Shown here piece by piece: positions 24,638 through 53,598 of a stretch of DNA of 64,000 nucleotides; position 1 is the stretch's first letter; each line of letters opens with the position of its first letter. The stretch lies in contig JBOGVS010000012.1 of NCBI GenBank assembly GCA_050692555.1, forward strand, positions 5,993 to 69,992. The letters run 5' to 3'. The stretch comes from Actinomycetota bacterium (GTDB taxonomy: Bacteria; Actinomycetota; UBA4738; CALAEC01). The notes under the pieces are model-generated. The model did not search any database, had not been told where the DNA came from, and worked only from the letters and a program-made list of their open reading frames with translations. Position numbers and translations under genes: made by a program.

Positions 24638-24638
24638 C

Positions 24639-33098: not shown

Positions 33099-33727
33099 GC
33101 CATCCCCTTCTTCCCGGCGGCGGCCACGCCCATCCCGATCGCCGTCACCAGTGTCAGACCGGCCGCCGTGGCGCCGGGCACCGTGGTCAGGGGGTTGCCC
33201 TCGATCAGCACCATCGCGGACCCATCGCACCGGCCGCCCTTCCCGACGTGCTCCCCCTCGATCTCGTACAGGCCCACCAGGTCGAAGGGAAGCAGCCGGC
33301 CGTACGCCGCGTCGAGCGGATAGTCGCCCTCGGCCCGCTTTGCCCCTCCCCGATTCGGGTGGCTCCACTCGGCCACCTTCACTGAGTTCGGTCCCACCAC
33401 CACGGCGATGAACCCGCTGTGGTCCTTGATCACCTTCCGACTGGTCCCCACGTAGTGGATGTCGAGGTTCCCCTCGTTCGGAAGGACCACGGGGTTCGCG
33501 GCGGTGTCGTTGGCCGGCGTGTACGTCTGGTTTCCGATGGTGGCCTTCGCGTTGCATCCCCCGGTAACCCCCGCGGAGACCGGGGAACCGATCAGGAGCA
33601 CGGTGGGGATGGCGAGCGCGGCGAGGTGGAGGACGCGGCGCACGTGGTGCCGGGCTCGTGCGTGGCGGCTGCGGAGCGAACCAACCACTCGAGGAGGAGC
33701 GTAGTTCCCGGGCCTCCGAGCGGTCAA
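33095..33727 (-). CDS. Secreted / membrane-anchored hypothetical protein (exact start uncertain)
   Basis: Signal-peptide-like LHLAALAIPTVLLIGSPVSAG and a C-terminal hydrophobic anchor. 4-nt overlap with the downstream small gene. Confidence 0.4.
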   Translation of the reverse strand: MTARRPGNYAPPRVVGSLRSRHARARHHVRRVLHLAALAIPTVLLIGSPVSAGVTGGCNAKATIGNQTYTPANDTAANPVVLPNEGNLDIHYVGTSRKVIKDHSGFIAVVVGPNSVKVAEWSHPNRGGAKRAEGDYPLDAAYGRLLPFDLVGLYEIEGEHVGKGGRCDGSAMVLIEGNPLTTVPGATAAGLTLVTAIGMGVAAAGKKGMA

Positions 33728-35916: not shown

Positions 35917-36783
35917 GAGCTCCGAGACGGCCATGGCTCCCAGCACCAGCAGGGCGCCGATCCACTGGTGGAACGCCAGTCGCTCCCCCAGCCACACCGC
36001 GGAGAATGCCGCCGCGGACACCGACTCCCCGGCCAGGATGACCACCGCCCGGGCCGCGGTGACCTGGCGCTGGGCCAGGACCTGCAGGGTGTAGGCCACC
36101 CCGGACCCCAGCACCCCGGTGACCAGCAGCAGGTGCCAGGCATCTACGGCGCCCTCCGGGCGCAACCCCTCCCCCAGGGCCAGAGTGGCCACCACGTGCA
36201 GGGCCGCCGCTCCACCCATCTGGGCCGCCGACAAGAGGACCGGCAGGTGCCGGCCGACGAAGCGGCCGAGGGTCACGACGTGCGCGGCCCAGGCCACCGA
36301 CCCCGCCAGGACCAGGAGATCGCCGAATCGAGGGCGGAGGTCCCGGAGGCTGGGGACGGACAGGAGGGCCAGCCCGACCACCGAGAGGACCACGGCGATC
36401 CACACCGCTCGTCGGGCGGACTGACGGAACAGCAGAACCCCGAGGATGGGAACGAACACCACATACAGGCCGGTGATGAATCCCGCGTTGGTGGCGGTGG
36501 TCCGAGCCAGGCCTTCGGTCTGCAGCGTGTAGCCCAGGAAGATGAACGAGCCAAGCAGGAGGCCGGGACCGACCACCCGCCGGACGTCCGCCCCCCGGAT
36601 CTGGCGCCGGGCCACCAGCGGGATGGCCGCCACGATCGTCAGGAACCCGATCACCCGGGTCCAGGCCATGAACGGGTAGATGCCCGTCACCACGATCCCC
36701 AGCTTCGCGGCGGGAAACGTGGCCCCCCAGAGGATGGGTGTCAGCAGGAGCAGCAGTCCCGGATCGATCCGGCGCTCGGCCAT
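35869..36783 (-). CDS. EamA/DMT-family transporter
   Basis: Ten TM helices with a duplicated EamA-domain pattern. Start at M79. TGATG overlap with the amidohydrolase stop. Confidence 0.75.
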   Translation of the reverse strand: MAERRIDPGLLLLLTPILWGATFPAAKLGIVVTGIYPFMAWTRVIGFLTIVAAIPLVARRQIRGADVRRVVGPGLLLGSFIFLGYTLQTEGLARTTATNAGFITGLYVVFVPILGVLLFRQSARRAVWIAVVLSVVGLALLSVPSLRDLRPRFGDLLVLAGSVAWAAHVVTLGRFVGRHLPVLLSAAQMGGAAALHVVATLALGEGLRPEGAVDAWHLLLVTGVLGSGVAYTLQVLAQRQVTAARAVVILAGESVSAAAFSAVWLGERLAFHQWIGALLVLGAMAVSELSARRADLRAEAATPV

Positions 36784-38270
36784 CAGCGAGCGAAGACCTC
36801 GCGGCCACGCGAGACCGTGAGGACCGGACGCAGCTCTCGAATGTCGTAGATCTCGAACGGGTCGTCGTCGTAGGCCGCCAAGTCTGCGGCCGCCCCGGGC
36901 TCCAGGGTTCCCTTCTTCTCCAGGTGAGCCAGACGCGCGGCGCCGACGGTATGGAGCCGGATGGCTTGCTCCCGGGTCATCCGCTGTTCGGGGTCGTGGT
37001 GGTTCTCCAGGGCCCACACGGCCAGCATCGGATCGAGCGGAGTCACCGGCGTGTCGGACCCAGCGCCCACCTCCAGGCCCCGGGCGACCAGATCACGGAA
37101 CGGGTTCATCCGCCGGGCGCGCTCGGGGCCCAGCCGCCGCTCGTACATCCCGCCCTCATGACCCCACAGCGCGTCGAACGCCGGCTGCACGGAGATGGCC
37201 AGTCCCAGCGCCGCGGCCCGCTCCACCTGCGATGGCGAGGCCATCTCGAAGTGCTCGAGGCGGTGCCGGCGAGCCCGGAAATGCCGGCGGCTGCGGGAGT
37301 CGAGGCTTCCGTAGACCCGGGCCCAGACCTTGAGCGCCTGTTCGATCGCCGCGTCGCCGATCACGTGGAGCCCGGTCTGGAGCCCGGCCAGATGGGCGTT
37401 GTGCAGGAACTCCGCGAGCTCGTCGTCGGCGTAGGTCAGGGTCCCCCGGTCCTCATGGTCCGCATACGGCTCGTCGAGGAGCGCGGCGGTTCTGGCTCCG
37501 ATCGAGCCGTCCAGGAACATGTCGCCGCCGATCCTTGGTTGGCCGAGGTCTCCCATCACCCAGGGGATGTCGCGATCAGCGATGTACGTCACCGCGTCGA
37601 GCGGGAGGTCGGCGATGTGGCCCAGGAGGACCTCCACGTCCCGGCGCCCTCGCTTCGCGGGGATGGCCATCTCGTGCACGCAGGTCACCCCCCGAGCCGC
37701 GGCCAGGCTGGCGGCCTCGAGCTGGGCTCCCCGGATCGCCGCGGCCGGCAGGGAATAGAAATACCACCGCTGGGCCTGGGAGTTCGCTTCGTGACGAAGG
37801 ACCCCGATGGGCGCGCCGGATCCGTCCCGTTCCACGCCCTCCAGGTCCTCGACCCCCGAGGCCTTCAGGGCCGCGGTGTTGGCCAGGCTCACGTAGCCGT
37901 CGGCCCGAAGGATCAGGAGCGGCTCCTGGGATGCGCGGTCCAGCTCGGCCATCGACGGGAACGCGGGGTCGTCCCATCTGGTCTCGTCGAAGGACTGGCC
38001 GAGCGCAGGTCCCTGTCGGTGGGCCGCGAACTCCCGGGCGGCCTCAAGCAGCTGGTGCCGGGAGCGCACCTCGGAGAGATCCAGCCCGGCGAGCGCGGTC
38101 CCCGTCCCCGAGAGATGGACGTGGGCGTCGACGAACCCGGGGGCGATGGTGGTGCCCGGAAGCTCCACGGTGCGCTGAGCCGGCGGAGGCTCGCCCATGC
38201 CCACCCGCTCGACGTGACGATCGTCGACCAGGACCCAGTCCGCCTCGCCAAGGAGCGTGAGGGTGCGCAC
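36783..38270 (-). CDS. Metal-dependent amidohydrolase (amidohydrolase_3 family)
   Basis: GFVDAHVHL metal-binding motif, downstream His/Asp ligands (HVIGD, GSDTPV). GTG start chosen to avoid overlapping the divergent hisD start. Confidence 0.7.
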   Translation of the reverse strand: MRTLTLLGEADWVLVDDRHVERVGMGEPPPAQRTVELPGTTIAPGFVDAHVHLSGTGTALAGLDLSEVRSRHQLLEAAREFAAHRQGPALGQSFDETRWDDPAFPSMAELDRASQEPLLILRADGYVSLANTAALKASGVEDLEGVERDGSGAPIGVLRHEANSQAQRWYFYSLPAAAIRGAQLEAASLAAARGVTCVHEMAIPAKRGRRDVEVLLGHIADLPLDAVTYIADRDIPWVMGDLGQPRIGGDMFLDGSIGARTAALLDEPYADHEDRGTLTYADDELAEFLHNAHLAGLQTGLHVIGDAAIEQALKVWARVYGSLDSRSRRHFRARRHRLEHFEMASPSQVERAAALGLAISVQPAFDALWGHEGGMYERRLGPERARRMNPFRDLVARGLEVGAGSDTPVTPLDPMLAVWALENHHDPEQRMTREQAIRLHTVGAARLAHLEKKGTLEPGAAADLAAYDDDPFEIYDIRELRPVLTVSRGREVFAR

Positions 38271-38352
38271 GCGCGATGCTCGATAGAGGGTCTTCAACCC
38301 GGACCTCCCCGCGAAGCCCGGCGATTCTATCCGTCCCCGTACAATCGCAGGC

Positions 38353-39618
38353 ATGCTTCGCCTGCTTGACCTGCGACGGGGCGATCCACCGCCCGAGCCG
38401 GTCCGTCCGGCGCTCGACCCCGCGGTGCTCGAAGGCGCCAGGGGGATCTGTGAGCATGTTCGTTCGGACGGGGATGCGGCGCTCGTGGACCTCACCCGGA
38501 GGTACGACGGAGCCGACATCGAGGGCCGCATCGAGGTACCGAAGGACGAGCTGCGGTCCGCAGCGGACCAGCTCCCCGGTGAGCTGCGCTCGGCGATCGA
38601 TCGGATGGCCGAACGCCTCCGGGACCTCCATAGGCGCCAGCTTCCCGAGCCCTGGGACGCCGATCGCGACGGCGTCCGATACGGGGAGGTGGTCCGGCCC
38701 CTGGCGTCGGTGGGCTGCTACGTCCCCGGGGGGCGAGCGGCCTATCCATCCACGGTCCTGATGACCGCGGTCCCCGCTCGAGTGGCCGGTGTCGGCCGGG
38801 TGGTGCTGTGCACTCCGCCGTCCGAGGACAGTTCCCTGCCGCCGGCGGTGCGGTACGCGGCCTCGGTGGCCGGCATCGACGCCGTGTACCGGATCGGCGG
38901 CGCCCAGGCCATCGCCGCCTTGGCCTATGGGACCGAGACCGTGCCGGCGGTGGACAAGGTCGTGGGTCCCGGCAACGTGTGGGTCACCGCGGCGAAACGG
39001 GAGATCGCCGCGGTCGTGGGGATCGACGGCCTGGCCGGACCGACCGAGCTGGTGGTGGTGGCCGGCTCCGACGCCGACCCCGTGGTCCTCGGAGCGGACC
39101 TGGTGGCCCAGGCCGAGCACGATCCCCTGGCCCGGACCATCCTGGTGTGCCTGGACGACACCCTGGCCGAGAAGGTGGACCGAGCCCTGGACGCCGAGGT
39201 GGAGGCCTCGCCGCGGCGCGAGGTGGTCGCCGCGGCGCTCGGGGAGTCCATGGCGGTGATCGCGGGATCCGAGGGCGACGCCGCCCGGCTGGTGGACCGC
39301 TTGGCTCCCGAACATCTGCAGGTGGTCACCGAGCGTCCCCGAGCGTTCCTGGACCAAGTGCGCTCGTACGGCGCCGCGTTCCTGGGGCCGCTGACGCCCG
39401 TCTCGTTCGGGGACTACGGGGTCGGGTCGAACCACGTGCTGCCGACGATGGCCACCGCGAGGTTCTCCTCCGGTCTGCGCGCGTCGGACTTCGTGACGGT
39501 GTCCAGCGTGGTGGAGGGAACCGCCGACGGGCTGGCCGCACTCGGTCCGGACGTGGAGGCCGTCGCTCGGGCCGAGGGTCTGCCGGGGCACGCACGGTCC
39601 GCCGAGGTACGCCGATGA
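38353..39618 (+). CDS. hisD: Histidinol dehydrogenase
   Basis: Typical HisD length and motifs (GPGNVWVTAAK, AQAEHDP). Confidence 0.9.
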   Translation: MLRLLDLRRGDPPPEPVRPALDPAVLEGARGICEHVRSDGDAALVDLTRRYDGADIEGRIEVPKDELRSAADQLPGELRSAIDRMAERLRDLHRRQLPEPWDADRDGVRYGEVVRPLASVGCYVPGGRAAYPSTVLMTAVPARVAGVGRVVLCTPPSEDSSLPPAVRYAASVAGIDAVYRIGGAQAIAALAYGTETVPAVDKVVGPGNVWVTAAKREIAAVVGIDGLAGPTELVVVAGSDADPVVLGADLVAQAEHDPLARTILVCLDDTLAEKVDRALDAEVEASPRREVVAAALGESMAVIAGSEGDAARLVDRLAPEHLQVVTERPRAFLDQVRSYGAAFLGPLTPVSFGDYGVGSNHVLPTMATARFSSGLRASDFVTVSSVVEGTADGLAALGPDVEAVARAEGLPGHARSAEVRR

Positions 39619-40682
39619 CACCGTCCCTCCGTCCCGACCTGGCGTCGGTGGCGCCGTACCGGGCCCCGCAGGTTGAGGCGCCGGTGCGGCTCAACACCAA
39701 CGAATGTCCGTATCCCCTGCCTGAAGGGTTCGCCGAAGAGCTCGCCGCGGCGATCGCTCGGATCCCGTTCAACCGGTACCCGGATCGGGAGGCCACCGCC
39801 CTTCGCAAGGGCCTGGCCGAGTACGCCGATCACCCGTTCGCCGGCGTGTGGGCGGCCAACGGGTCGAACGAGGTCATCCAGCACCTGTGTCTGGCGTACG
39901 GCGGCCCCGGCCGCGCTGCGATGGTGTTCGAGCCCACCTACGGGCTGCACTCCTTGATCCCCCGGATGATCGGGATGGAGGTGTTGTCGGAGCGCCTCGG
40001 CGCCGACTTCCGGCTCGGCCCCGAGGCCGTGGATGCGGTCCGGGACCGGCGGCCGCACGTGGTGTTCGCGTGCTCGCCGAACAATCCCACGGGGAGCCAC
40101 CAGCCGCTGTCGGTGATCGAGGCCATGTGCGAGGCGGCCGGCGAGGGGTTGGTGATCGTCGACGAGGCCTACGGGGAGTTCGGGGGTGTGACCGCGGGAG
40201 ATCTGGTCGACGGGCGCCGGAACCTGGCCGTGGTCCGGACCTTCTCGAAGGCGTTCTCGCTGGCGGCGGCCCGGCTGGGGTACTGCCTGGCGGATCCCAA
40301 TGTGGTCGAGGACCTCGCCCGGGTCCGGCTCCCGTACCACCTGTCGGCCCTGACCCAGACCGCCGGAGAGGTGGCCCTGCGGTACGCCAACGAAGCCATG
40401 GGCATCTTGGAGCTGGTAGGGGCCGAACGGGATCGCCTGGCCGAATCCCTCGGAGCGATGGAAGCGGTAGAGGCTGTTCCCTCTGACGCGAACTTCGTCC
40501 TGTTCCGCACTGCTGCGAAGGCCGGGGCCCTGTGGCGGGCGTTGCTCGATCGCGGGGTGCTGGTCCGGGACGTCTCCGCGGCCCCCGGCCTCGAGCGCTG
40601 CCTCCGGGTCACCGCGGGGACTCCCCAGGAGGTCGACGCCTTCCTCGAGGCCTTTCCACCCGCACTCGAGGAGACTCGATGA
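39615..40682 (+). CDS. hisC: Histidinol-phosphate aminotransferase
   Basis: Class-II aminotransferase with the PLP-lysine region (SKAFSLAAARLGY). ATGA overlap with hisD. Confidence 0.85.
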   Translation: MTPSLRPDLASVAPYRAPQVEAPVRLNTNECPYPLPEGFAEELAAAIARIPFNRYPDREATALRKGLAEYADHPFAGVWAANGSNEVIQHLCLAYGGPGRAAMVFEPTYGLHSLIPRMIGMEVLSERLGADFRLGPEAVDAVRDRRPHVVFACSPNNPTGSHQPLSVIEAMCEAAGEGLVIVDEAYGEFGGVTAGDLVDGRRNLAVVRTFSKAFSLAAARLGYCLADPNVVEDLARVRLPYHLSALTQTAGEVALRYANEAMGILELVGAERDRLAESLGAMEAVEAVPSDANFVLFRTAAKAGALWRALLDRGVLVRDVSAAPGLERCLRVTAGTPQEVDAFLEAFPPALEETR

Positions 40683-41260
40683 ACCGGGAGGCGACCACTG
40701 AGCGAGCCACCGGGGAGACCCGGGTGACGGTTCGGCTGGACCTGGACGGCTCGGGGACGGGTTCGGCCAAGACGGGGATCCCGTTCTTCGACCACATGCT
40801 GGAGCAGCTGGGGACCCACGCGGGGTGGGACCTGGACGTCCGGGCCGACGGCGACCTCGACGTGGACGCCCACCACACCGTGGAGGACGTGGGTCTGGCC
40901 CTCGGCCGGGCTCTGGCGGAGGCGCTGGGAAACAAGGAGGGGATCCGGCGGTTCGGCCACGCCGCGGTGCCCCTCGACGAGGCTCAAGTGGATGTGGCCC
41001 TGGACCTCTCCGGCCGGCCGTTCGTGACCCACGAGGTCCCGGTCCCCGCGGAGCAGATCGGCACCTACGACCCCGGGCTCACCGAGGACTTCGTGCGCGC
41101 CTTCGCCACTTCGGCCGGGATGACCCTCCACGCCCGGCTGGTCTCCGGCCGGAGCCCCCACCACGTGGTGGAGGCCGAGTTCAAGGCCCTTGCTCGAGCC
41201 CTGGGCGACGCTTGCATGTTCGAGGGCAGGGGCACACCGTCCACCAAGGGTCTCCTGTAG
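40679..41260 (+). CDS. hisB: Imidazoleglycerol-phosphate dehydratase
   Basis: IPFFDHML and DAHHTVEDVG motifs. Confidence 0.9.
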   Translation: MNREATTERATGETRVTVRLDLDGSGTGSAKTGIPFFDHMLEQLGTHAGWDLDVRADGDLDVDAHHTVEDVGLALGRALAEALGNKEGIRRFGHAAVPLDEAQVDVALDLSGRPFVTHEVPVPAEQIGTYDPGLTEDFVRAFATSAGMTLHARLVSGRSPHHVVEAEFKALARALGDACMFEGRGTPSTKGLL

Positions 41261-41865
41261 TGCCCCGGGTGTCGATCCTCGACTACGGGATGGGCAACCT
41301 GCGGTCGGTGGCCCGGGCCGTGGACCGAGCCGGCGGGGAACCCGTGGTGACCTCGGACCCCGCGCAGGCCGAGATGGCCGACGCCATGGTGGTGCCCGGT
41401 GTGGGCGCCTTCGCCGCGTGCATGGAAGGGCTGCGGGACGCTGGGCTGGATGGCGCCGTGAGAAGGTTCGCCGGATCGGACCGCCCGCTGCTGGGGGTGT
41501 GTCTGGGCATGCAGGTGCTGTTTGACCGGAGCGATGAAGGCGACGCCGAGGGGCTGGGGGTATTCGCCGGCGAGGTCCGTCGGCTGCCGGCCACCGTGAA
41601 GGTCCCCCACATCGGATGGAACGAGGTGTCCTGGACCGCCGGCCACCCGCTGGTGGTGGGGATCGACTCGGGCACCAGGTTCTACTTCGTCCACTCCTAC
41701 GCGTGTGTGCCGAAGCAGCCCGTGACCATCGGCGAGACCGAGCACGGGATGCGGTTCGCCGCGGCCGTGGCTCGCGACACCGTGTTCGCCACCCAGTTCC
41801 ACCCCGAGAAGTCCGGGGACCCGGGACTGGAGATCTATCGAAACCTGGTCAAGGCGGCGGCGTGA
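41260..41865 (+). CDS. hisH: Imidazole glycerol phosphate synthase, glutaminase subunit
   Basis: Class-I GATase with GVCLGMQ catalytic Cys and HSY...QFHPEKS motifs. GTG start overlaps the hisB stop. Confidence 0.85.
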   Translation: MPRVSILDYGMGNLRSVARAVDRAGGEPVVTSDPAQAEMADAMVVPGVGAFAACMEGLRDAGLDGAVRRFAGSDRPLLGVCLGMQVLFDRSDEGDAEGLGVFAGEVRRLPATVKVPHIGWNEVSWTAGHPLVVGIDSGTRFYFVHSYACVPKQPVTIGETEHGMRFAAAVARDTVFATQFHPEKSGDPGLEIYRNLVKAAA

Positions 41866-42569
41866 TCGTCATCCCCGCCATCGACATCCGCGGAGGCCGC
41901 GTGGTCCGGCTGAAGCACGGCCGGGCCGAGGAGGAGACCGCCTATGCGGACGACCCCGTGGAGGTGGCTCGGCGGTTCGTCGGCGAAGGCGCCACGTGGC
42001 TCCATCTCGTGGACCTCGACGCGGCCATGGGGACCGGCCACAACCGCGAGATCCTCGGCGAGGTGGTTGGGGCGGCCGGCGCCCAGGTGCAGGTGGCGGG
42101 AGGCCTGCGATCTCCCCAGGCGCTCGACGACGCCCAAGCAGCGGGGGCCGCCCGGCTGGTCCTGGGGACCGCGGCGATTCTCGATCCCGGGTTCCTGAGA
42201 GCGTCGGTGGACCGGCTCGGCGACCGGCTGATCGCCGCCGTCGACGTCGATGGTGACCAGGTCCTGGTCCGGGGGTGGAAGGAACGGGCCGGCAAGCTCG
42301 GCGAGGTGCTCCCCCGGCTGGAGGAGGATGGCGCGCCGAGGCTGCTGGTCACCCAGGTGGCCCGGGACGGCACCCTGTCCGGTCCGGACATCGGGCTGTA
42401 CACCCGGCTGGTGGAACGGTGCGGCCGCCCGGTCCTGGCCTCGGGAGGCGTTCGGGACGTGGACGACCTGCGAGCGCTGTCGGCCACCGGGGTGGAAGCG
42501 GCCCTCGTGGGGACCGCGCTGTACGAGGGCCACCTCACGGTGGCTCAGGCCATCCAGGCGATCAAATGA
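41862..42569 (+). CDS. hisA: ProFAR isomerase (HisA; PriA-type likely in actinobacteria)
   Basis: [15 protein letters not shown]-terminus of the (beta/alpha)8 HisA family. GTGA overlap with hisH. Confidence 0.85.
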
Positions 42570-43324
42570 CTTTGGCCCGCCGGGTGATCCCCTGCCTGGA
42601 CGTCGACGCCGGCCGGGTGGTGAAGGGAACCCGGTTCGTGGACCTGGTGGACGCCGGCGACCCCGCGGAGCTGGCCGCCCGCTACGATGGGGAGGGGGCG
42701 GACGAGCTGGTGTTCCTGGACATCACCGCCACGGTCCAGGGGCGGGGAGCCACGCTCGACGTGGTGTCCCGCACCGCGGAGACCGTGTTCATCCCGCTGA
42801 CGGTGGGCGGCGGGATCCGTTCGGAGCAGGACGTCCGGACCCTGCTGAGGGCCGGAGCCGACAAGGTCTCGCTGAACACCGCGGCGGTCCACGATCCATC
42901 CCTCCTGGCCGCATGTGCCGACCGGTTCGGCACGCAATGTGTGGTCGTCGCCGTCGACGCCCGGAGGCGTGACGGTGGCTGGGAGGTGGTGGTGGAGGGC
43001 GGACGAACCCCCACCGGCCGGGACGCGGTGGCGTGGGCGGAGCAGGCCGCCGAACTGGGCGCCGGAGAGGTCCTCCTGACGTCGATGGACCGCGACGGCA
43101 CCGGGGAGGGATACGACCTGGACCTCCTCCGGGCGGTGACCGGGGCCGTCCCGGTGCCGGTGATCGCATCCGGCGGGGCCGGCCGCCCCCAGCACTTCGC
43201 CGACGCCCTGACGGCGGGGGGCGCCGATGCGGTGCTGGCGGCGTCGAGGTTTCATTTCGGAGCGCTCACGCTTCGTCAGGTGAAGGAGTACCTTGCCCGG
43301 AACGGAATCCCGGTGAGGCGCTGA
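42566..43324 (+). CDS. hisF: Imidazole glycerol phosphate synthase, cyclase subunit
   Basis: [16 protein letters not shown] and VFLDITAT motifs. Confidence 0.9.
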
Positions 43325-43653
43325 TGAGCGAACCCGATCTGGTACTGCGGTTCGACGAACGCGGTCTGGTCCCCGCGGTCATCCAGGACGTGGAGAACGG
43401 CGAGGTCCTCATGGTCGCGTGGATGAACGAGGAGGCGGTCCGCAGGACGCTGGACTCCGGCCGTACGTGGTTCTGGAGCCGCTCCCGGCAGGAGCTGTGG
43501 CGAAAGGGCGACACCACCGGCCACGTCCAGCACGTTCGCGAGGTCCGCTACGACTGCGACGCGGACACCTTGCTGGTGAAGGTCGACCAGGTCGGCGCGG
43601 CGTGCCACACCGGCGAGCGGTCGTGCTTCCACCGGGTTCTGGAGACATCCTGA
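43324..43653 (+). CDS. hisI: Phosphoribosyl-AMP cyclohydrolase
   Basis: ~110-aa HisI with WFWSRSR...GDTTGH and a CHTGERSCF zinc-site motif. No HisE domain fused. Confidence 0.85.
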
Positions 43654-44531
43654 TGCTTCGGTTCGTGATCCCCAAGGGCTCGCTGGAGGAACAGACCCTG
43701 CTGCTCCTGGAGTCCGCCGACCTCCGGGTTCGGCGGGGGTCCGACCGCGACTATCACGGTCGCATCGACGACGATCGCATCGACCGCGTCTCGCTGCTCC
43801 GTCCCCAGGAGATCCCCCGGTACGTGGAGGACGGGTTCTTCGACCTGGGGATCACCGGCCGGGACTGGGTGGAGGAGACCGGAGCGGACGTGGAGACCCT
43901 GGCCGAGCTCACGTATGCAAAGGGCGGTCCCGGCCACCCCGTGCGGCTGGTGCTGGCGGTGCCGGTGGACTCGGGCCCCGGTCGGGCCGCCGAAATGCCT
44001 CCCGGCAGCCGGATCTCCACCGAGTATCCCGAGATCACCAGGAGGTACTTCGGGGACCTGGGGATCCCGGTGAAGGTGTTCGAGTCCTACGGTGCCACCG
44101 AGGCCAAGGTCCCCGACATCGTGGACGCCATCGTGGACGTGTCGGAGACCGGAGGGACGCTCCGGGCGCACGGGATGAAGATCATCGAGACGCTCATGGA
44201 GTCGGAGGTCCTGCTGATCGCCAACCGCGCCGCGGCGGCGGATCCGGGGAAGCGGCCGGACATGGACGATGTCCGAACGCTGCTCCTGGGCGCCATGGCC
44301 GCCCGGGGCCGGGCCCTCATCAAGCTCAACGTGTCCGAGGAGCGGCTGAAGGAGATCCTCGAGGTCCTCCCGGCCATGAAGGCCCCCACGGTGTCGCCGC
44401 TGGCCGAGGAGGGCGCCTATGCCGTGGAGACCGTGGTGGAGAAGCGCAACGTGAACACCCTGATCCCCCTCCTCAAGGCCTACGGGGCCACCGACATCCT
44501 CGAGATCCCCATCAGCAAGATCGTTCCCTAG
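43653..44531 (+). CDS. hisG: ATP phosphoribosyltransferase (long form)
   Basis: [12 protein letters not shown]-terminus. ~290 aa including a C-terminal regulatory domain. Confidence 0.85.
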   Translation: MLRFVIPKGSLEEQTLLLLESADLRVRRGSDRDYHGRIDDDRIDRVSLLRPQEIPRYVEDGFFDLGITGRDWVEETGADVETLAELTYAKGGPGHPVRLVLAVPVDSGPGRAAEMPPGSRISTEYPEITRRYFGDLGIPVKVFESYGATEAKVPDIVDAIVDVSETGGTLRAHGMKIIETLMESEVLLIANRAAAADPGKRPDMDDVRTLLLGAMAARGRALIKLNVSEERLKEILEVLPAMKAPTVSPLAEEGAYAVETVVEKRNVNTLIPLLKAYGATDILEIPISKIVP

Positions 44532-44812
44532 TCGGGAGGAACGAAGAACCGGCCGGGTCGGGGGCGGATCCTGGTCACGGTGAGCGAGCCGGCATCCCCA
44601 CCGAAGTGCAGCTCTACCGGGAACGAGGGTGCCGAGGGCAGCCGGTTGTAGGCCGACCCCTGCCCCAAGACGAGCACCAGCCGGGCGCCGGCCGGAACCA
44701 CGGCGTCGAGCGGCTGGAATGAGAAGTCCACGGTCATCCGCTCCCCCGGGGTGACCGGACCGGCGTGGTCCTCGGTGCGGGTGGGAAAGCGCAGGTCGAT
44801 CGAGCGGTTCAT
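44528..44812 (-). CDS. Small hypothetical protein, translationally coupled (1-nt overlap) to the upstream reverse-transcriptase ORF
   Basis: 94-aa ORF directly downstream of the RT in the -1 frame. Either an RT C-terminal region split by a frameshift or a partner protein. Confidence 0.35.
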   Translation of the reverse strand: MNRSIDLRFPTRTEDHAGPVTPGERMTVDFSFQPLDAVVPAGARLVLVLGQGSAYNRLPSAPSFPVELHFGGDAGSLTVTRIRPRPGRFFVPPD

Positions 44813-45426
44813 CAGGCCGAGGACCCATCATCTCCCGGCCACCGCAGCGCGGTGGGCCCCTCCACGACCGAGGTCTTCCGCTCCGACCGGCGGAGCCCCA
44901 CCCGACCGAGGGCCTCGTCGATCCGATCGAGGACGACGAGCATCCCACCGGCTGACGGCAGGCCGATCAGATAGTCGTCCACCCATCGAAGGATGGGAGT
45001 AGGTGAGAGGGCTTCGTCGACGGGCCGGAGGACGGCATTGGCCATCACGGCGGAGGCCGGCGGGCCGATGGGGAGGCCTTCGTAGCCCTCGCTCCCCCAC
45101 TCCTCCAGCATGTCTGCCGACAGTCGGGCGTCCACCGGGTCCGCACCGGAGGACCGAAGGCACTCAGCCAGGACCGGCGGGGTCACCGATCCGTAGAACG
45201 AGGCCACGTCCGTCCGGAGCAGGAGCGAGGAGCGTCCGGCCACCCCGGCCGCCACCCGATTGGCCAGCCGGATGGACGCCGGGACCGGGGCCAAGCTCCA
45301 CGCCGTCGCCGACTCGGTCGACCGGTTCGCCAGGACACCCGGCTGCAGGCGCTGCTCGATGACCGGGGCCACCCGGCCGCCGAGCCGGTGCCACGCCGCC
45401 TCATCCCGCGGCGAGAGAACGGCCAT
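44812..45426 (-). CDS. Compact reverse transcriptase-like protein (RT motifs 1-7)
   Basis: AGVAGRS (motif 1), LLLRTDVASFYGSV (motif 2), GLPIGPPASAVMANAVL (motif 4/B), LRWVDDYLIG (motif 5/C, xDD catalytic box), GLRRSERKTSVV (motif 6/7). Confidence 0.6.
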   Translation of the reverse strand: MAVLSPRDEAAWHRLGGRVAPVIEQRLQPGVLANRSTESATAWSLAPVPASIRLANRVAAGVAGRSSLLLRTDVASFYGSVTPPVLAECLRSSGADPVDARLSADMLEEWGSEGYEGLPIGPPASAVMANAVLRPVDEALSPTPILRWVDDYLIGLPSAGGMLVVLDRIDEALGRVGLRRSERKTSVVEGPTALRWPGDDGSSA

Positions 45427-45608: not shown

Positions 45609-46955
45609 TCAGGAGCGCGGCAGCTCGGCGAGCCGCTCGAACAGCAGGGCCTGAGAGACGCAGGTCTTCTCGAAATCGTCGAGGAGCAGGCTCTCGTTGG
45701 CTCCGTGAGCTCGCCCATCCGGGTCCTCGACGCCGGTGAGGAGGATGGCGGTGTCCGGGTACGCCTCGGCGAACGCGGCCACCAGCGGGATGGTCCCCCC
45801 CGCGCCGATGTCCTTGGGGGCGGCCCCCCAGCCCTCCTCGAACGCCTGCCGGGCGGCCTGGTACACGGGGCCCTCCGCCGGGACCTGGAACGGCCAGGCG
45901 CCCGCTCCCTCGGTGACCGTCACCCGGGCGCCCCATGGTGCGTTCGACTCCAGGTGGTGGACCAGGGCCTTCATGGCCCGGGTCGGGTCGTCGCCCGGAG
46001 CGAGTCGAAGGCTGACCTTGGCCCGGGCCACCGGCACCAGGATGTTCGCGGCCTCGGGGACCCGCGGCGCGTCGATCCCCAGCACCGCCAGCGCTGGGCG
46101 GGACCACAGCCGCTCGGTGAGCTCTCCATCCCCGATCAGCTGCAGACCCTCGACGGATCCGGCCTGCTCCCGGAACTCCTGTTCGGTGAGATCCAGGGGG
46201 TCCGAGGGGCCCGACGCCAGGCCGTCGATGGCCACGTTCCCTCGGTCGTCATGGAGGGTTGCCAGCAGCCGGGACAGCGAGGTGAGGGCGTCGGGAAGCG
46301 GGCCTCCCCACATGCCGCTGTGGACGGCGTGGTCGAGGGTCCTCACCTCCACGACGCAGTCGACCAGGCCGCGCAGCTTGGTAGTGAGGCCCGGGGTCCC
46401 CACCCGCCAGTTCGACGCGTCGGCCAGGATGATCACGTCGGCGCGAAGGGCATCCGCGTACCGATCGAGGAACGCCGGGAGGTTCGGTGACCCTTGCTCC
46501 TCTTCGCCCTCGATGAACACCCGCACTCCGACCGGCGGCGCGCCGTCGTGAGCCAGCAAGGAAGCCTGGTGGAGGGCGATCCCCGCTTTGTCGTCACAGG
46601 AACCTCGTCCGAACAGCCTGCCATCTCTTTCGGTGGGCTCGAACGGCGGGGTGTCCCAGTCGGACTCGTCTCCGGGGGGCTGGACGTCGTGGTGCGCGTA
46701 CAGCAGTACCGTGGGAGCTCCGTCGGGAGCCGGATGCTCACCGACCACCGCGGGATGGGCTCCCTCCACCTCGAGGAGCCGGACCCCCTGAAGGCCACAG
46801 CCCTCGAGGATCTCGGCGGTGAGCTCCGCGGAGGCGCGCACGGGCGCCGGGTCGAAACCTTCGAAGCTGACGGAGGGGATCCGGATGAGCCGTTCGAGGT
46901 CCTTACGAACACGGGGAAGCACGGCGCGGGTGGCTTCCCGGAGGTCGGCGCTCAC
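45609..46955 (-). CDS. M20-family metallopeptidase (dipeptidase / DapE-ArgE like)
   Basis: HHDVQP and GRGSCDDKAG metal-binding motifs. Dimerisation-domain architecture. Confidence 0.8.
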   Translation of the reverse strand: MSADLREATRAVLPRVRKDLERLIRIPSVSFEGFDPAPVRASAELTAEILEGCGLQGVRLLEVEGAHPAVVGEHPAPDGAPTVLLYAHHDVQPPGDESDWDTPPFEPTERDGRLFGRGSCDDKAGIALHQASLLAHDGAPPVGVRVFIEGEEEQGSPNLPAFLDRYADALRADVIILADASNWRVGTPGLTTKLRGLVDCVVEVRTLDHAVHSGMWGGPLPDALTSLSRLLATLHDDRGNVAIDGLASGPSDPLDLTEQEFREQAGSVEGLQLIGDGELTERLWSRPALAVLGIDAPRVPEAANILVPVARAKVSLRLAPGDDPTRAMKALVHHLESNAPWGARVTVTEGAGAWPFQVPAEGPVYQAARQAFEEGWGAAPKDIGAGGTIPLVAAFAEAYPDTAILLTGVEDPDGRAHGANESLLLDDFEKTCVSQALLFERLAELPRS

Positions 46956-46968
46956 GCGGAGGAGGCTA

Positions 46969-48402
46969 TCAGGTGAGCGCCGGGACCCGTTCGGCTCCCG
47001 CGGCGAAGCGACGCCAGTACTCCCTGCCCTCCTCGGACAGGGTGGGAACGGGATCGTAGTACGGGTACCGCCGGCCGAGGGCCTCGGGATCGTCGAACTC
47101 GATCCCGGTGCGATAGTTCTTCGTCCAGTAGGAGATCCCGAGAACGCGGTCGTAGTCCTCGATCTGGTTCACCCACCGCTTCCCCACATAGGGGACGTCG
47201 CACACGATCCGCGGCGTGGCGAAGCCGGGAAGGTACCCCATGATAGCGTGCTGGAGTTCCTGTGCTTCCCACACCGCGGTCCGCCAGTGCTCCGAGTTCG
47301 GGATCATGTCGCACATGTAGAAGTAGTACGGCATCACCTTGGCGTGGTCGAGCAGCGTGAAGCACAGCTCCAGCAGCTCCTTGGGGGTGGTGTTGACGCC
47401 GCGGAGGAGCACCCCCTGGTTCCGGACGTCCCGAAGCCCGCACTCCAGAAGCTTGCGGGTCGCCGTAGCCACCAGCGGGGTGACTTGGTTGGCGTGATTG
47501 ACGTGGGTGTGCACGGCGATGTCCACGCCCCGTTGCCGCGCAACGGTGGCCATCCGCTCGCACGCGGCCAGGACGTCGTTCTGGAGGAAGTGCTGCGGCA
47601 GACCCATGAGGCCCTTGGTGGCCAGCCGGATGTCCCGGATGTTCTCGATCTCCAGGAGCTGCATGACGAAGTCCTCGAGGCGCCGGATCGGCACGTTGGC
47701 CATGTCCCCACCCGAGACCACCACGTCGCGGACCGACGGCGTGGCCCGCAGGTACTCGAGCATGCGGTCCCATCGTTCTTGCTGCCTCTCCTCGAACTTG
47801 TACTTGAGGATCTGCGGCGTGTCGTTGCCCACCAGGTCCATCCGGGTGCAGTGACCGCAGTACTGGGGACAGGTGGCGATCATCTCCGCGAGGACCTTCG
47901 TCGGGTAGCGGTGGGTGAGGCCTTCCACGGCCCACATGTCGGCCTCGTGGAGGCTGTCCCGCGCCGCCAGCGGATGGCTGGGGAACTCCGGGTCCCGGTC
48001 GGACAGCACGGGGAGCATGTACCGGCGCACCGGGTCACTCCACAGGTCCTGCTCGTCCATGGTGTTGAGCATCTGGGGCGGGACGAGCATGGACATCGTG
48101 GCCCGCTGTCGCTGGTCGCGCTCGAGGTCGGCCATGAACTCGTCGGTGGCGTACTCCCCTAGTGCGTCCTTCAACTGCCCGAGGTTCTTGACCGTGTGGG
48201 CTCGTTGCCACTGGGCGCTCTCCCACTGCTCCGGGGTGACCTCTCGGTAGCCAGACAGACGCCGCCACTCCGGTTCCCTGAACTCCCGGGGCAGGGGGTA
48301 TCGGAACGGCTGGTCGGCCGCGTGGGCCTGCAGCCTGCGGTGGCCCGGTCTCTGTGGGTCCATTGGCTCGCTCGCTGGAAGGATCGGCTCGTGAGAGCTC
48401 AT
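46969..48402 (-). CDS. kamA: Lysine 2,3-aminomutase family radical-SAM enzyme (KamA-like)
   Basis: CPQYCGHCTRMDLVG radical-SAM CxxxCxxC in KamA-family context. Trailing PLP-binding region. Start at M72 (alternative at M85, coordinate 48363). Confidence 0.75.
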   Translation of the reverse strand: MSSHEPILPASEPMDPQRPGHRRLQAHAADQPFRYPLPREFREPEWRRLSGYREVTPEQWESAQWQRAHTVKNLGQLKDALGEYATDEFMADLERDQRQRATMSMLVPPQMLNTMDEQDLWSDPVRRYMLPVLSDRDPEFPSHPLAARDSLHEADMWAVEGLTHRYPTKVLAEMIATCPQYCGHCTRMDLVGNDTPQILKYKFEERQQERWDRMLEYLRATPSVRDVVVSGGDMANVPIRRLEDFVMQLLEIENIRDIRLATKGLMGLPQHFLQNDVLAACERMATVARQRGVDIAVHTHVNHANQVTPLVATATRKLLECGLRDVRNQGVLLRGVNTTPKELLELCFTLLDHAKVMPYYFYMCDMIPNSEHWRTAVWEAQELQHAIMGYLPGFATPRIVCDVPYVGKRWVNQIEDYDRVLGISYWTKNYRTGIEFDDPEALGRRYPYYDPVPTLSEEGREYWRRFAAGAERVPALT

Positions 48403-48435
48403 TCTAGAGCCGAACGTCCGGGAAAATCCAACTCT

Positions 48436-48454
48436 GGCCGAATCTGGTTCGGCC
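48436..48454 (-). terminator. Stem-loop GGCCGAAccagaTTCGGCC downstream of the GNAT gene (weak intrinsic-terminator candidate)
   Basis: 7-bp perfect stem with a 5-nt loop, followed on the minus strand by a short tttt tract. Confidence 0.3.
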
Positions 48455-48466
48455 CACAGGTCGTGG

Positions 48467-49018
48467 CTAGGACAGGTGAGGCACGTCGGAGGCCAGGAGC
48501 CCGTAGAGGTGGCAGTCGTACCCGCCTGAGCCGTGGGGGCATCCGCTCCGGAGGGTCCCCTCGCGGTGGAAGCCGAGCTTCTCCGCCACCCGCTGGCTGG
48601 CCGCGTTTTCCACACCGGCCCTGAGCTCGAGGCGGTACAGCCCCAGCGTTCGGAACCCGAAGCCGACGATCGCTCGTCCCGCTTCCGTGGCGTACCCGCG
48701 TCCGGTCACGTCCGAGCGGACCCAATACCCCATCTCCCCGATCCGCTGGTCCGGCCTCGACCAGCGGATGCCGATCCCGCCGACGACCGATCCCTCCTGG
48801 AGGATGGCGAAGTCGTACTCCCGCCCGGCGGACCAGGCCTTCACGGCGCCTTGAACGAACGCCTCTGTCCGGTCACGAGACGTCTCCGGCGCCCAGGCCA
48901 TCCAGTCCCGCAGATCCGCCAGTGAGGCCTCCACGGCCTCCCACGTCCGCTCGGCATGCGTCGGCTCGATCGGCTCGAGGCGAAGCCAGTCCGTCTCGGT
49001 GGGCTCTCGGGGGATCAC
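48467..49018 (-). CDS. GNAT-family N-acetyltransferase
   Basis: Acetyl-CoA-binding motif A region (RGYATEAGRAIVGFGF). ~180 aa. 4-nt overlap with the upstream kdd-like gene. Confidence 0.8.
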   Translation of the reverse strand: MIPREPTETDWLRLEPIEPTHAERTWEAVEASLADLRDWMAWAPETSRDRTEAFVQGAVKAWSAGREYDFAILQEGSVVGGIGIRWSRPDQRIGEMGYWVRSDVTGRGYATEAGRAIVGFGFRTLGLYRLELRAGVENAASQRVAEKLGFHREGTLRSGCPHGSGGYDCHLYGLLASDVPHLS

Positions 49019-50037
49019 CAGGCGTACCGGCGCTCGAACACGGCTCGCAGGTCCGGGGTCTCTCGGATCATCTGGAGCGCCAGGTCCGCGTGACCGGGAA
49101 CGTATCCCGACCCGATCTGGAGGCCGACGTCCTTGCCCAGGCCCTCGGCGATCAGCGCCGCCGCGGTGAAGGAGGTAGCCATGGAGAAGAAGTACACGTC
49201 GCCTCCCTCCCGAGCCAGGAGGATCGAGGCCCCCTCCGTCCCCGGGACGTTGACGCAGTTGACCACGAGGTCGGCCACCCCGTCGTCATCTCCGCCCAAC
49301 ACCTCCGCGGCGGCCCGAAGACATCCGACCGGGTCCTGCGCGTCGGCCGCCAGCACTTCCTTGAAGCCCAGTCCCCGGAGGATCGCGATGTCCCGCTCGT
49401 GGTGCACCACCCCGGCCACCCGCTCCGAGAGGCCCCGGGCCGCGACCATGGCCAGGATCCCCGACTTCCCGCCCGCGCCCACGACCAACGTGCGTCTTCG
49501 GCCCGGCGCCAACCGACGCACCTGCGCCGGGGCTCCGGCCACGTCCAGAACGGCCAGGCACAGGTTCGCCGGGAGGTCATCCGGAAGCCGGGCGTACGGC
49601 GCCGACTCGAACAGGATCGCCCGCCCCGCGACGGGAACCTGCTCGGAGCTCCCGTCCCACTCGGAGAGGTCGTCGATGATCAACGGCGTCAGCGTCAGTG
49701 AAACCAGCGTGGCGATCCGGTCGCCGGGGCGGACATCGGCCCGCCGCTCCCCCACCTCCGCCACGGTGCCCACCAGCATCCCACCGGATCCGGTGACCGG
49801 GTTGTGCATCTTCCCTCGCGCCCGCACGATGTCGAGGACCCGCCCCCGCATCCGTTCCGGGTCGCCGCCCCGCTCTTGGCGGATCTGGTGGAAGGACGCC
49901 GCGTCGAGGTTCAGCCGGCTCACCTCGATCAACGCCTCCCCTCCTCGAGGCGGCGGGGAGGGGTCCAGTCGTTCGGCCTGCTGGGGAAGGGCACCGGGCG
50001 GCTCGATCACCCGGTGGAGGCCGTAGGGCGAAGTCAT
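49015..50037 (-). CDS. kdd: L-erythro-3,5-diaminohexanoate dehydrogenase-like (Kdd family) NAD(P) oxidoreductase
   Basis: ~340 aa with Rossmann motif GAGGKSGILAM. Size and context (kamA operon) match Kdd. Family assignment is by resemblance, not a database search. Confidence 0.55.
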   Translation of the reverse strand: MTSPYGLHRVIEPPGALPQQAERLDPSPPPRGGEALIEVSRLNLDAASFHQIRQERGGDPERMRGRVLDIVRARGKMHNPVTGSGGMLVGTVAEVGERRADVRPGDRIATLVSLTLTPLIIDDLSEWDGSSEQVPVAGRAILFESAPYARLPDDLPANLCLAVLDVAGAPAQVRRLAPGRRRTLVVGAGGKSGILAMVAARGLSERVAGVVHHERDIAILRGLGFKEVLAADAQDPVGCLRAAAEVLGGDDDGVADLVVNCVNVPGTEGASILLAREGGDVYFFSMATSFTAAALIAEGLGKDVGLQIGSGYVPGHADLALQMIRETPDLRAVFERRYAW

Positions 50038-50060
50038 ATGGCTCTATTATTCGGCCCACC

Positions 50061-50501
50061 GTGGACGACAAGGACCTCCGGATCCTGACCATCCTCCAGG
50101 AGGACGCCCGGGCCACGTACGCGCAGATCGCCTCCCAGGTCGGGCTCTCCGCGTCGTCGGTGCACGACCGCGTCCGGAAGCTGGAGCGGCGCGGGGTGAT
50201 CCTCGGGTACCGGGCCTCCCTCGATCCGCACGCGGTGGGTCTGGGAGTCACCGCCCTGGTCTCGGTGGTGCCCCTCGATCCTTCGCAGCCCGACGATCTC
50301 CCCGACCGCGTGGTGGAGTTCCCGGAGGTGGAGGACTGCTTCTCCGTGGCCGGCGTGGAGAGCTACGTCCTCAAGGTACGGACCCGGACCACCGGCGACC
50401 TCGAGGACCTGCTCCGGCGCCTTCGGGAGAAGGCCGGGGTCCAGACCAGGACAACGGTGGTGCTGTCGATCCCCTTCGAGGGACGCCCCCTCAAGCCTTG
50501 A
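50061..50501 (+). CDS. Lrp/AsnC family transcriptional regulator
   Basis: N-terminal HTH (YAQIASQVGLSASSVHDRVRKLE) plus RAM domain. Divergent from the kamA-GNAT-kdd operon. Confidence 0.85.
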   Translation: MDDKDLRILTILQEDARATYAQIASQVGLSASSVHDRVRKLERRGVILGYRASLDPHAVGLGVTALVSVVPLDPSQPDDLPDRVVEFPEVEDCFSVAGVESYVLKVRTRTTGDLEDLLRRLREKAGVQTRTTVVLSIPFEGRPLKP

Positions 50502-50520: not shown

Positions 50521-52431
<1,911 letters not shown>

Positions 52432-52452: not shown

Positions 52453-53598
52453 TCAGTCCTGACCGGCCAGGTCCCGGCCGATGATCACCCGCTGGATCTG
52501 GTTCGTCCCTTCCACGATCTGCAGCGCCTTGGCCTCACGCATGTATCGCTCCACCGGATACTCGGCCATGTACCCGTAGCCGCCGTGGGCCTGCACCGCG
52601 TCGGTGGTCACCCGCATGGCCACATCCGAGGCGAACAGCTTGGCCATCGAGCACGACACGCTGCTGCCCGCTCCCCGGTCCCTGGCCCGGGCCGCCTCTC
52701 GGTACAGTCGGCGAGCCGCCTCAACCTGAGTCGCCGCATCCGCCAGGAGGAACTGGAGTCCCTGGTTCTCGATGACCGGCCGGGCGAACTGCTCTCGCTC
52801 CCGTGAGAACGCCACCGCGGCGTCGAGGGCGGCCTGGGCCAGACCCACAGAACACGCCGCGATCCCCAGCCGGCCCCCGTCAAGGGCGGCCAGGCCTACC
52901 GTGAACCCCTGCCCTTCCTCCCCCACCAGGTTCTCCGCGGGGACCCGACAGTCCTCGAACAGCAGCTCCCGCATCGGGGAGGCGTGCCACCCCATCTTCT
53001 CCTCAAGCCTCCCGAACCCGAAGCCGTCCCAGCCCTTCTCCACAGCGAAGGCCGAGATACCCGAGGGTGACTGGTCGCCGGTGCGAGCCATCACCAGATA
53101 GAGCTCCGCTTCTCCTCCGTGGCTGATGAATCGCTTGGAGCCCGTGAGCACGTACGAATCGCCTCCGCGCTCGGCCCGGGTGCGCAGCGCGGCGGCGTCC
53201 GAGCCACTGGAGGCCTCCGACAGCGCGTAGGCCCCCAGCCACTCCCCGGAGAACAGCCGGGGCAGGTACTTCTCCTTGAGCTCGTCCGAGCCGAACTCGT
53301 GGATCCCGAACGCCGACAGATGGTGGACGGACATCCCCACGGCCAGGGAAAGCGAGCCGGTGGCCACCTCCTCCAGGACGGCGAGGTAGGTGAGGTACGG
53401 CTGGCCCCCTCCCCCGTACTTCTCCGAGTACGGGATCCCGGCCAGGTCCATGTCGGCCAGGCCGCGGAACTGGTCCCGGGGGAACTGCTTGCGCTCTTCG
53501 AACCCGGCGGCCTGGGGGGCAACCCGGTCGGCGACGAACGTTCGCACGGCGCCCACGATCTCGCGCTGCTCGCCGGTGAGCCCGAAGTCCCTGTCCAC
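52453..53598 (-). CDS. Acyl-CoA dehydrogenase
   Basis: ACAD N-terminal, middle and C-terminal domain pattern. ~380 aa. Confidence 0.85.
   Translation of the reverse strand: MDRDFGLTGEQREIVGAVRTFVADRVAPQAAGFEERKQFPRDQFRGLADMDLAGIPYSEKYGGGGQPYLTYLAVLEEVATGSLSLAVGMSVHHLSAFGIHEFGSDELKEKYLPRLFSGEWLGAYALSEASSGSDAAALRTRAERGGDSYVLTGSKRFISHGGEAELYLVMARTGDQSPSGISAFAVEKGWDGFGFGRLEEKMGWHASPMRELLFEDCRVPAENLVGEEGQGFTVGLAALDGGRLGIAACSVGLAQAALDAAVAFSREREQFARPVIENQGLQFLLADAATQVEAARRLYREAARARDRGAGSSVSCSMAKLFASDVAMRVTTDAVQAHGGYGYMAEYPVERYMREAKALQIVEGTNQIQRVIIGRDLAGQD

Follow-up and report, generated by a model that had tools for sequence, protein, structure and literature searches.

A candidate lysine/3,5-diaminohexanoate pathway split over two sites, with an accessory acetyltransferase-peptidase pair, in an Actinomycetota genome

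Gene content of the locus

We analysed a set of genes of beta-lysine metabolism in a stretch of 64,000 nt from an Actinomycetota genome (assembly GCA_050692555.1, contig JBOGVS010000012.1, positions 5,993 to 69,992), hereafter the window, whose G+C content is about 69%. Four genes follow one another on the minus strand, in this order of transcription: kdd (49015-50037, 340 aa, an equivalog match to NF052381), a GNAT acetyltransferase gene of the RimJ/RimL (Acetyltransf_3) type (48467-49018, 183 aa, PF13302 at 97 bits), kamA (46969-48363, 464 aa, with the radical-SAM motif CPQYCGHC and a match to PDB 2A5H) and a gene for an M20 metallopeptidase of the CNDP/carnosinase/Dug1 type (45609-46955, 448 aa, Pfam Peptidase_M20 and M20_dimer). 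A gene for an Lrp/AsnC-family regulator (50061-50501, plus strand) diverges from kdd. About 14 kb from kamA, also on the minus strand, lie the mutually overlapping genes kamD (31211-32803), kamE (30465-31214) and kal (30080-30472), each of which exceeds its curated cut-off (NF052384, 722 versus 600 bits; NF052385, 310 versus 280 bits; NF052388, 174 versus 160 bits), in agreement with a previous reading made from the sequence alone. An Amidohydro_3 metal hydrolase gene (36783-38354, minus strand; 37% identity to the L067 protein) lies between the two groups. A gene for a short-chain acyl-CoA dehydrogenase of the butyryl/acryloyl-CoA type (52453-53598, minus strand; NF042972 at 400 bits, under its cut-off) lies beyond the regulator. 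Taken together, the window probably holds the canonical lysine/3,5-diaminohexanoate pathway in an actinobacterial layout, spread by insertions and joined by an accessory GNAT-M20 pair.

The sequence-only reading had described an operon kamA-GNAT-kdd joined by 4-nt overlaps. The kamA, GNAT, kdd and lrp genes are real and adjacent as described, but transcription runs from kdd through GNAT to kamA, and the M20 gene had been left out. A 4-nt overlap (GTGA) does join the kdd stop to the GNAT start, and it is the only one among kdd, GNAT and kamA: the GNAT and kamA genes are separated by 103 nt (48364-48466, minus strand), a spacer that holds a palindrome and a -10-like hexamer. The kamA stop is 13 nt from the M20 start. 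The G+C content at third codon positions is 0.86-0.92 across kdd (0.89), GNAT (0.88), kamA, M20 and lrp, a native-gene composition.

Pathway steps were assigned from family membership and gene context. A Kdd scan with one genome per species gave 80 loci, onto which the window proteins were mapped, and the open reading frames (ORFs) of 23 actinobacterial Kdd loci were clustered. A metagenome scan with an alignment of members of the GNAT orthogroup gave 80 loci. About 95 related loci were compared in all, and they are cited below by L numbers.

The dehydrogenase and the Lrp-type regulator

The Kdd protein scores 247.1 bits against NCBIfam NF052381 (Lys_ferment_KDD), for which the cut-off is 200. 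Residues 5-339 align with residues 8-351 of the crystallised 3,5-diaminohexanoate dehydrogenase (PDB 7DL3, E=2e-79), and the equivalent of Glu310 is kept. In the characterised enzyme, this residue binds the cofactor, and the enzyme is reported to be strictly specific for its native substrate (PMC9902596). We assign 49015-50037 as the gene for L-erythro-3,5-diaminohexanoate dehydrogenase, with a predicted NAD(P)-dependent oxidative deamination activity.

The deposited kdd annotation has 305 aa and omits the N-terminal 35 codons (window 49933-50037), although they align with the crystallised enzyme; the annotated start is therefore 35 codons too late. With the full ORF, only 23 nt separate the start codons of the divergent kdd and lrp genes, a spacing that suggests leaderless or overlapping divergent promoters. 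The regulator has an N-terminal AsnC-type helix-turn-helix domain (PF13404, 66 bits) and a C-terminal ligand-binding (RAM) domain (AsnC_trans_reg, PF01037, 49 bits), and it scores beneath every NCBIfam equivalog cut-off. Homologues with 50-85% identity adjoin kamA or kdd in L004, L006, L034, L035, L048, L050, L059, L065, L076 and L078.

Outside Actinomycetota, kdd stands alone in about 16 Thermotogota loci, raising the question of the substrate of these Kdd-like enzymes. In four of the Thermotogota loci (L014, L017, L028 and L030, at about 8100-11030), an M20 peptidase gene and yqeY precede a stand-alone kdd homologue, and neither kamA, kamDE nor kal is found within 10 kb of it. A Kdd-M20 association recurring across phyla was considered and rejected, as it involves only these four closely related loci and a different M20 subfamily.

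The KamA-family aminomutase

The 464-aa protein encoded at 46969-48363 is 100% identical to an entry (P0001) annotated as 'KamA family radical SAM protein', and it matches lysine 2,3-aminomutase 2A5H with E=4e-43 (phmmer). Its CPQYCGHC motif, already noted in the sequence-only reading, aligns with Cys125, Cys129 and Cys132 of 2A5H, giving the CxxxCxxC cluster. In the same alignment, Arg134, Asp293 and Asp330 of 2A5H are kept, which we take to be lysine-binding residues; the counterparts of Asp293 and Asp330 are presumably replaced in glutamate 2,3-aminomutase. The lysine corresponding to the pyridoxal phosphate-binding Lys337 is one position off (DVPYVGK versus DAPGGGGK), just where the local alignment ends. 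The protein is neither an EpmB-type modifier of EF-P (TIGR03821, 136.6 bits, cut-off 369.3) nor a glutamate 2,3-aminomutase (TIGR04368, 130.7 bits, cut-off 650), the lysine-type aspartates being present.

Scores below all curated cut-offs, those of the KamA-family and AblA models included, place the protein in a divergent KamA clade, and it is not to be filed as an AblA equivalog by its sequence. More than 8000 homologues were found, and the top 120, at >=74% identity, are nearly all labelled Actinomycetota. Members of the same clade, with 62-74% identity, are encoded beside kdd, kamD, kamE and kal in at least 13 Actinomycetota loci. This adjacency is the best evidence for the role that we propose for the clade, namely that of the predicted lysine 2,3-aminomutase of the pathway.

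A clade member with 75% identity is found alone in L002 (10001-11452), with no kdd, kamDE, kal, GNAT or Lrp gene within 10 kb, so that some members of the clade need not serve lysine catabolism. An alternative kamA start giving 477 aa (ATG at 48402) was rejected: this ATG lies inside the conserved TAGAAT described below, and homologues and annotation favour 48363. The 477-aa version had no exact match in the gene collection.

The kamA upstream region

The GNAT-kamA spacer contains the palindrome CCGAACCAGATTCGG at 48438-48452, the only perfect CCGAA-N5-TTCGG of the window, with a half-site 31 nt downstream of it and a -10-like TAGAAT at 48401-48406, about 35 nt ahead of the kamA ATG. The block is kept in L004, L083 and L084. 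Of 21 actinobacterial loci, 16 have a relaxed box, CCGnA-N5-TnCGG, upstream of kamA, the number expected from random segments of the same loci being 4.9 (200 draws, maximum 11), and two boxes are often 31 nt apart. The relaxed box is present where kamA diverges from lrp and also at the stand-alone kamA of L002. Window-wide, CCGAA-N5-TTCGG with <=2 mismatches is not enriched (43 versus 40 expected), and the weight of the palindrome therefore comes solely from its conservation ahead of orthologous kamA genes.

A promoter of their own probably serves kamA and M20, with a predicted operator at which a dimeric regulator, perhaps the Lrp protein, would bind. The conserved, phased box might mark the operator at which the pathway regulator acts, and it is one of the leads that remain. 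No such box was found ahead of the amidohydrolase or acyl-CoA dehydrogenase genes. A one-mismatch copy at 50560-50574 overlaps the start of an FtsH-like gene. Rfam models gave no match in 44-53 kb at E<=1, so that the spacers hold neither a recognised riboswitch nor another known RNA. A scan of 44.4-50.7 kb for consensus sigma-70 promoters and intrinsic terminators gave nothing either, which is a weak test for a high-GC actinobacterium.

Layout of the pathway across Actinomycetota

The steps of the canonical lysine pathway are set out in PMC3149608, with the fermentation cluster kamA-kamDE-kdd-kce-kal described from Fusobacterium nucleatum, Clostridium and 'Candidatus Cloacamonas'. The window shares with this cluster a KamA-family protein, KamD, KamE, Kdd and Kal, four of the five above curated equivalog cut-offs, with an acyl-CoA dehydrogenase nearby. 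It differs in that its genes lie at two sites 14 kb apart, with no kce in 71.6 kb of contig, in that its KamA belongs to a divergent actinobacterial clade with about 30% identity to the Firmicutes enzymes, and in the addition of GNAT, CNDP-type M20, Amidohydro_3 and Lrp genes. Lysine-pathway genes are already on record for Actinobacteria from genome surveys (PMC3994512). The actinobacterial pathway has been predicted from genomes, and our literature search found no biochemical study of it.

A closer counterpart is the compact actinobacterial cluster Lrp-kamA-kdd-(Amidohydro_3)-kamD-kamE-kal, seen in L034, L078, L048 (Krasilnikovia), L059 (Nocardioides lentus) and L065 (Actinoplanes); compact clusters were also found in Actinoallomurus and several metagenome-assembled genomes. 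They usually also hold the Lrp gene and an acyl-CoA dehydrogenase gene, a homologue of which (50-86% identity) adjoins the Lrp gene in L004, L006, L034, L035, L048, L065 and L078. Besides the KamA similarity given above, the window resembles them in Kdd (52-57% identity), KamD (58-64%), the Lrp, acyl-CoA dehydrogenase and amidohydrolase families, and the palindromic box upstream of kamA. A gene for an Amidohydro_3 enzyme of about 510 aa lies between kdd and kamD in nine loci (L034, at 10993-12519, L035, L048, L050, L059, L065, L067, L078 and L079), and after the M20 and reverse-transcriptase-like genes in L003 and L093. The window copy is probably an accessory pathway gene; one might speculate that it opens a lactam or deacylates a pathway intermediate. 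Its only PDB relative is the uncharacterised 3ICJ. Embedded as it is in many actinobacterial lysine clusters, this enzyme is one of the leads that remain.

The order kdd, amidohydrolase, kamD-kamE-kal and lnt/ppm1, all on the minus strand, is collinear with that of the compact clusters. We therefore take the 14-kb split to reflect, most plausibly, an ancestral compact cluster spread by insertions. Unlike in the compact clusters, kamA lies downstream of kdd in the window, and GNAT, M20, a mini reverse transcriptase gene, the his operon and others separate kdd, the amidohydrolase gene and kamD. On this best reading, the GNAT gene, kamA (moved downstream of kdd), M20, the mini reverse transcriptase gene and the whole his operon would all have been inserted into the ancestral cluster.

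The sequence-only reading had taken the presence of both a GNAT gene and kdd with kamA in one operon, with kamDE/kal 14 kb away and no kce anywhere in the window, to suggest a non-canonical beta-lysine route. The absence of kce held: tblastn with the Kce-like BKACE protein of L082 (best family NF052387, 257 bits) gave nothing in the window at E<=1e-3, and no BKACE was present among the Pfam families of the genes called in the 7.6 kb of contig beyond the window. Of a complete lysine fermentation pathway, KamDE and Kal were found, and Kce was not, within the window and these 7.6 kb. The conclusion drawn from it did not hold. The proximity of kamA and kdd is the normal arrangement in the 13 or more loci mentioned above, and among the 23 actinobacterial loci, just three (L040, L062 and L082) have kce within +/-10 kb of kdd, while in the other 20 it is unlinked; its absence therefore says little here. 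The main value of the comparison is thus a negative one: two seeming signs of a new route are normal in Actinomycetota.

A 245-aa ORF upstream of kamD was considered as a hidden Kce and rejected, as it has no Pfam or NCBIfam match and resolves into two ORFs. The first (33095-33727, minus strand, 210 aa) has a signal-peptide-like N-terminus and a C-terminal hydrophobic tail, and two membrane helices are predicted in the second (32811-33098, minus strand, 95 aa). Both lack Pfam and NCBIfam matches and are translationally coupled ahead of kamD.

The acetyltransferase and the M20 peptidase

The acetyltransferase call of the sequence-only reading was borne out by PF13302 and, at 46 bits, by PF00583. 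Its best sequence matches are N-acetyltransferases of the RimL/RimJ/YdaF group (PDB 1NSL, 1S7K), YdaF (1NSL, 2.5e-15) and RimL being its closest solved relatives. RimL is also the best NCBIfam match, at 50 bits versus a cut-off of 184, and the gene context, unlike that of this group, is amino-acid catabolism and not ribosomal. No AblB model is among the eight NCBIfam families that match the protein at E<=0.01. The M20 protein matches PRK07907 (577 bits), and its closest solved relatives are CNDP2 (2ZOF, 1.6e-40), carnosinase (3DLJ) and Dug1 (4G1P), not the ArgE/DapE deacylases.

The GNAT orthogroup has hundreds of metagenomic members at >=53% identity, confined to this lineage, and homologues at <=51% identity have different neighbours and no pathway genes nearby. 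A GNAT of the RimJ/RimL type was not found in 76 Kdd loci outside the narrow lineage of the window. Among orthologues at >=55% identity, eight have kdd immediately upstream, joined to them by the same overlap of 4 nt. In nine loci, M20 is the next gene after GNAT, with no kamA in between, and kamA stands between GNAT and M20 (or after GNAT at the contig end) in only four, namely the window, L004, L083 and L084. L087 and L088 carry GNAT-M20 without kdd. Other relatives lack the GNAT gene and have kdd-M20 (L003) or kdd-kamA (L006). In every GNAT-bearing related locus whose downstream sequence is covered, M20 comes after GNAT or kamA, and the M20 proteins are 73-80% identical across the loci that share the GNAT-M20 association.

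In a neighbour-joining tree of the GNAT proteins (100 bootstraps), the loci without kamA form two clades at 100% bootstrap, and the kamA-bearing loci are never monophyletic. The ancestral arrangement was probably kdd|GNAT|kamA|M20, with kamA lost from the site at least twice, a history reconstructed from the protein tree and gene order. The opposite history, insertion of kamA into an older GNAT-M20 pair, was rejected on the same tree, which argues for repeated kamA loss. Within one lineage, the GNAT gene keeps firmly to kdd and M20; its tie to the aminomutase gene is not obligate, and the lysine pathway does not generally include it. With the CNDP-type M20, the GNAT makes up a lineage-specific accessory pair, whose place between kdd and the genes downstream probably dates back to the lineage's common ancestor.

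Proposed pathway and alternative explanations

In the canonical pathway that we favour, KamA would convert L-lysine to beta-lysine, and KamDE, encoded 14 kb away, would convert beta-lysine to 3,5-diaminohexanoate, which Kdd would oxidise to 3-keto-5-aminohexanoate. A Kce encoded elsewhere in the genome would then combine 3-keto-5-aminohexanoate with acetyl-CoA to yield 3-aminobutyryl-CoA and acetoacetate. Kal would form crotonyl-CoA, to be passed to the neighbouring acyl-CoA dehydrogenase or to beta-oxidation. The divergent Lrp-type protein would control kdd-GNAT, and kamA-M20 would be driven by its own promoter with the conserved palindromic operator. A beta-lysine pathway under an Lrp-type regulator, the core of the sequence-only reading, is supported by the cut-offs passed by Kdd, KamDE and Kal, by the KamA residues and by the divergent lrp gene.

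Several observations weigh against this reading. KamA falls under the cut-off of the KamA-family model TIGR00238 (179.5 versus 199.2 bits) and far under that of the AblA model TIGR03820 (181.6 versus 525.4 bits), and lysine as its presumed substrate is read solely from conserved residues and genomic context. No kce is present in 71.6 kb of contig, and the pathway may truly lack Kce. Neither kdd/lrp nor the kamD operon has the kamA box in its upstream region, so that no common Lrp regulon is demonstrated. Lastly, a purely canonical pathway leaves the tight, conserved coupling of kdd and GNAT unexplained.

That coupling bears on whether the GNAT and M20 proteins belong to the pathway at all. We lean slightly towards a substrate unrelated to it; a pathway substrate, be it an amino group on lysine, beta-lysine or 3,5-diaminohexanoate or an acyl or peptidyl derivative of one of them, is credible at somewhat below even chances. 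The two proteins could simply be neighbours, for instance a protein N-terminal acetyltransferase and a general dipeptidase, that share a transcript through local gene order, a serious possibility to which we give rather less than even weight. The closest characterised GNAT relatives are of the RimL and YdaF types, and the association is known only from close genomes, as the M20 identities indicate, so that synteny is weak evidence of shared function. GNAT-M20 also occurs without kdd in two loci and without kamA in nine, and the mini reverse transcriptase gene and the his operon in the same stretch indicate that unrelated genes accumulate there. Against mere neighbourhood stand the 4-nt kdd/GNAT overlap kept in eight loci, the failure to find the orthogroup outside a kdd/M20 context, its more distant homologues having other neighbours, and the probable ancestral order kdd|GNAT|kamA|M20. 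The pair, translationally coupled to kdd, is another of the leads that remain.

A bolder view of the same coupling is unlikely: that acyl transfer by the RimL-type GNAT and hydrolysis by the CNDP-type M20 make up a branch acting on beta-lysine or 3,5-diaminohexanoate and fused genetically to the catabolic kdd. Such a branch might maintain a reversible pool resembling N-acetyl-beta-lysine, or protect from or repair reactive intermediates. If it existed, Actinomycetota would have arrived convergently, by a non-AblB route, at acetylated beta-amino acids, and a GNAT acting on beta-lysine would mark a second, independent origin of beta-lysine acetylation.

The sequence-only reading had seen in the pairing of KamA with a GNAT a hint of ablA/ablB. 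Osmolyte synthesis of that kind, with KamA forming beta-lysine, the GNAT acetylating it to N-epsilon-acetyl-beta-lysine, with M20 recycling the product, is improbable here. The KamA-family and GNAT genes are adjacent, probably the ancestral state of the GNAT orthogroup, and a hydrolase gene comes after them; AblA/AblB and yodP-kamA provide the precedent that such a pair can make a solute, although yodP-kamA of B. subtilis is reported not to be osmoprotective (PMC9049628). The window GNAT, however, is of another subfamily than AblB, as its RimJ/RimL-type matches indicate, and it is coupled translationally to the catabolic kdd, whereas kamA sits behind a separate promoter-like spacer. Its pairing with the aminomutase gene is not obligate, unlike that of AblB/YodP, nine orthologous loci retaining GNAT-M20 with no kamA between them. 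The M20 protein is a CNDP-type dipeptidase and not an ArgE/DapE-type deacetylase, and KamA is far under the AblA cut-off. The ablA/ablB hint was accordingly not upheld. Synthesis of N-acetyl-beta-lysine, whether in an acetylated branch or in a solute cycle, is possible, and no positive support for it was found.

Catabolism through acetylated intermediates is more doubtful still. The GNAT would N6-acetylate beta-lysine and Kdd, replacing an aminotransferase, would oxidatively deaminate its 3-amino group; a cleavage enzyme would follow, after which M20 or the amidohydrolase would remove the acetyl group. The scheme resembles the catabolism of acetylated beta-lysine in Pseudomonas B4 and by the yod operon of B. 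subtilis. It would accommodate the shared transcriptional direction of kdd, GNAT, kamA and the hydrolase gene, and the linkage of the amidohydrolase gene to kdd across Actinomycetota. Yet kamDE and kal, which are specific to the 3,5-diaminohexanoate route, are present and intact, and a Kce-like cleavage enzyme would still be required, so that the missing kce is left unexplained. Unlike in the Pseudomonas B4/yod type, no aminotransferase, CoA-transferase or cleavage enzyme, or ArgE-type deacetylase is present among the annotated ORFs of the window. The GNAT is missing from the 76 Kdd loci outside the lineage, and the window Kdd passes the equivalog cut-off of an enzyme whose characterised member is reported to be strictly specific for its native substrate (PMC9902596). 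A more extreme form of the acyl-transfer branch considered above, with the acetyl-CoA-binding GNAT standing in for the missing Kce, is very unlikely.

Other genes in the region

Downstream of M20 lies a mini reverse-transcriptase-like ORF (44812-45426, minus strand, 204 aa; RVT_1 at 36 bits) with motifs A, B and C (RWVDDY). It is found directly downstream of M20 or kamA in nine loci (L003, L004, L006, L085, L087, L090, L092, L093 and L102), and therefore looks like a resident gene and not a mobile-element remnant. It is followed by a 94-aa ORF (44528-44812, minus strand) matching PepX_C, the X-Pro dipeptidyl-peptidase C-terminal domain, at 22 bits, just under the cut-off, which is probably a gene fragment. 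The his operon (hisD to hisG; 38287-44531, plus strand) lies between the M20 and reverse-transcriptase-like genes and the amidohydrolase gene, on the opposite strand to them. As his genes come after the reverse-transcriptase-like gene in L006 and L087 as well, this adjacency is old in the lineage.

Between kal and a fused lnt-ppm1 gene (20711-23134), the plus strand carries a NurA/HerA/Mre11-like phosphoesterase/Rad50-like SMC ATPase set (23561-29623). On the other side of the locus, an atypical FtsH-like AAA protease is encoded between lrp and the acyl-CoA dehydrogenase gene (50566-52431, plus strand; TIGR01241, 301 versus 600 bits), and it is kept in the close relatives L003, L004 and L087.

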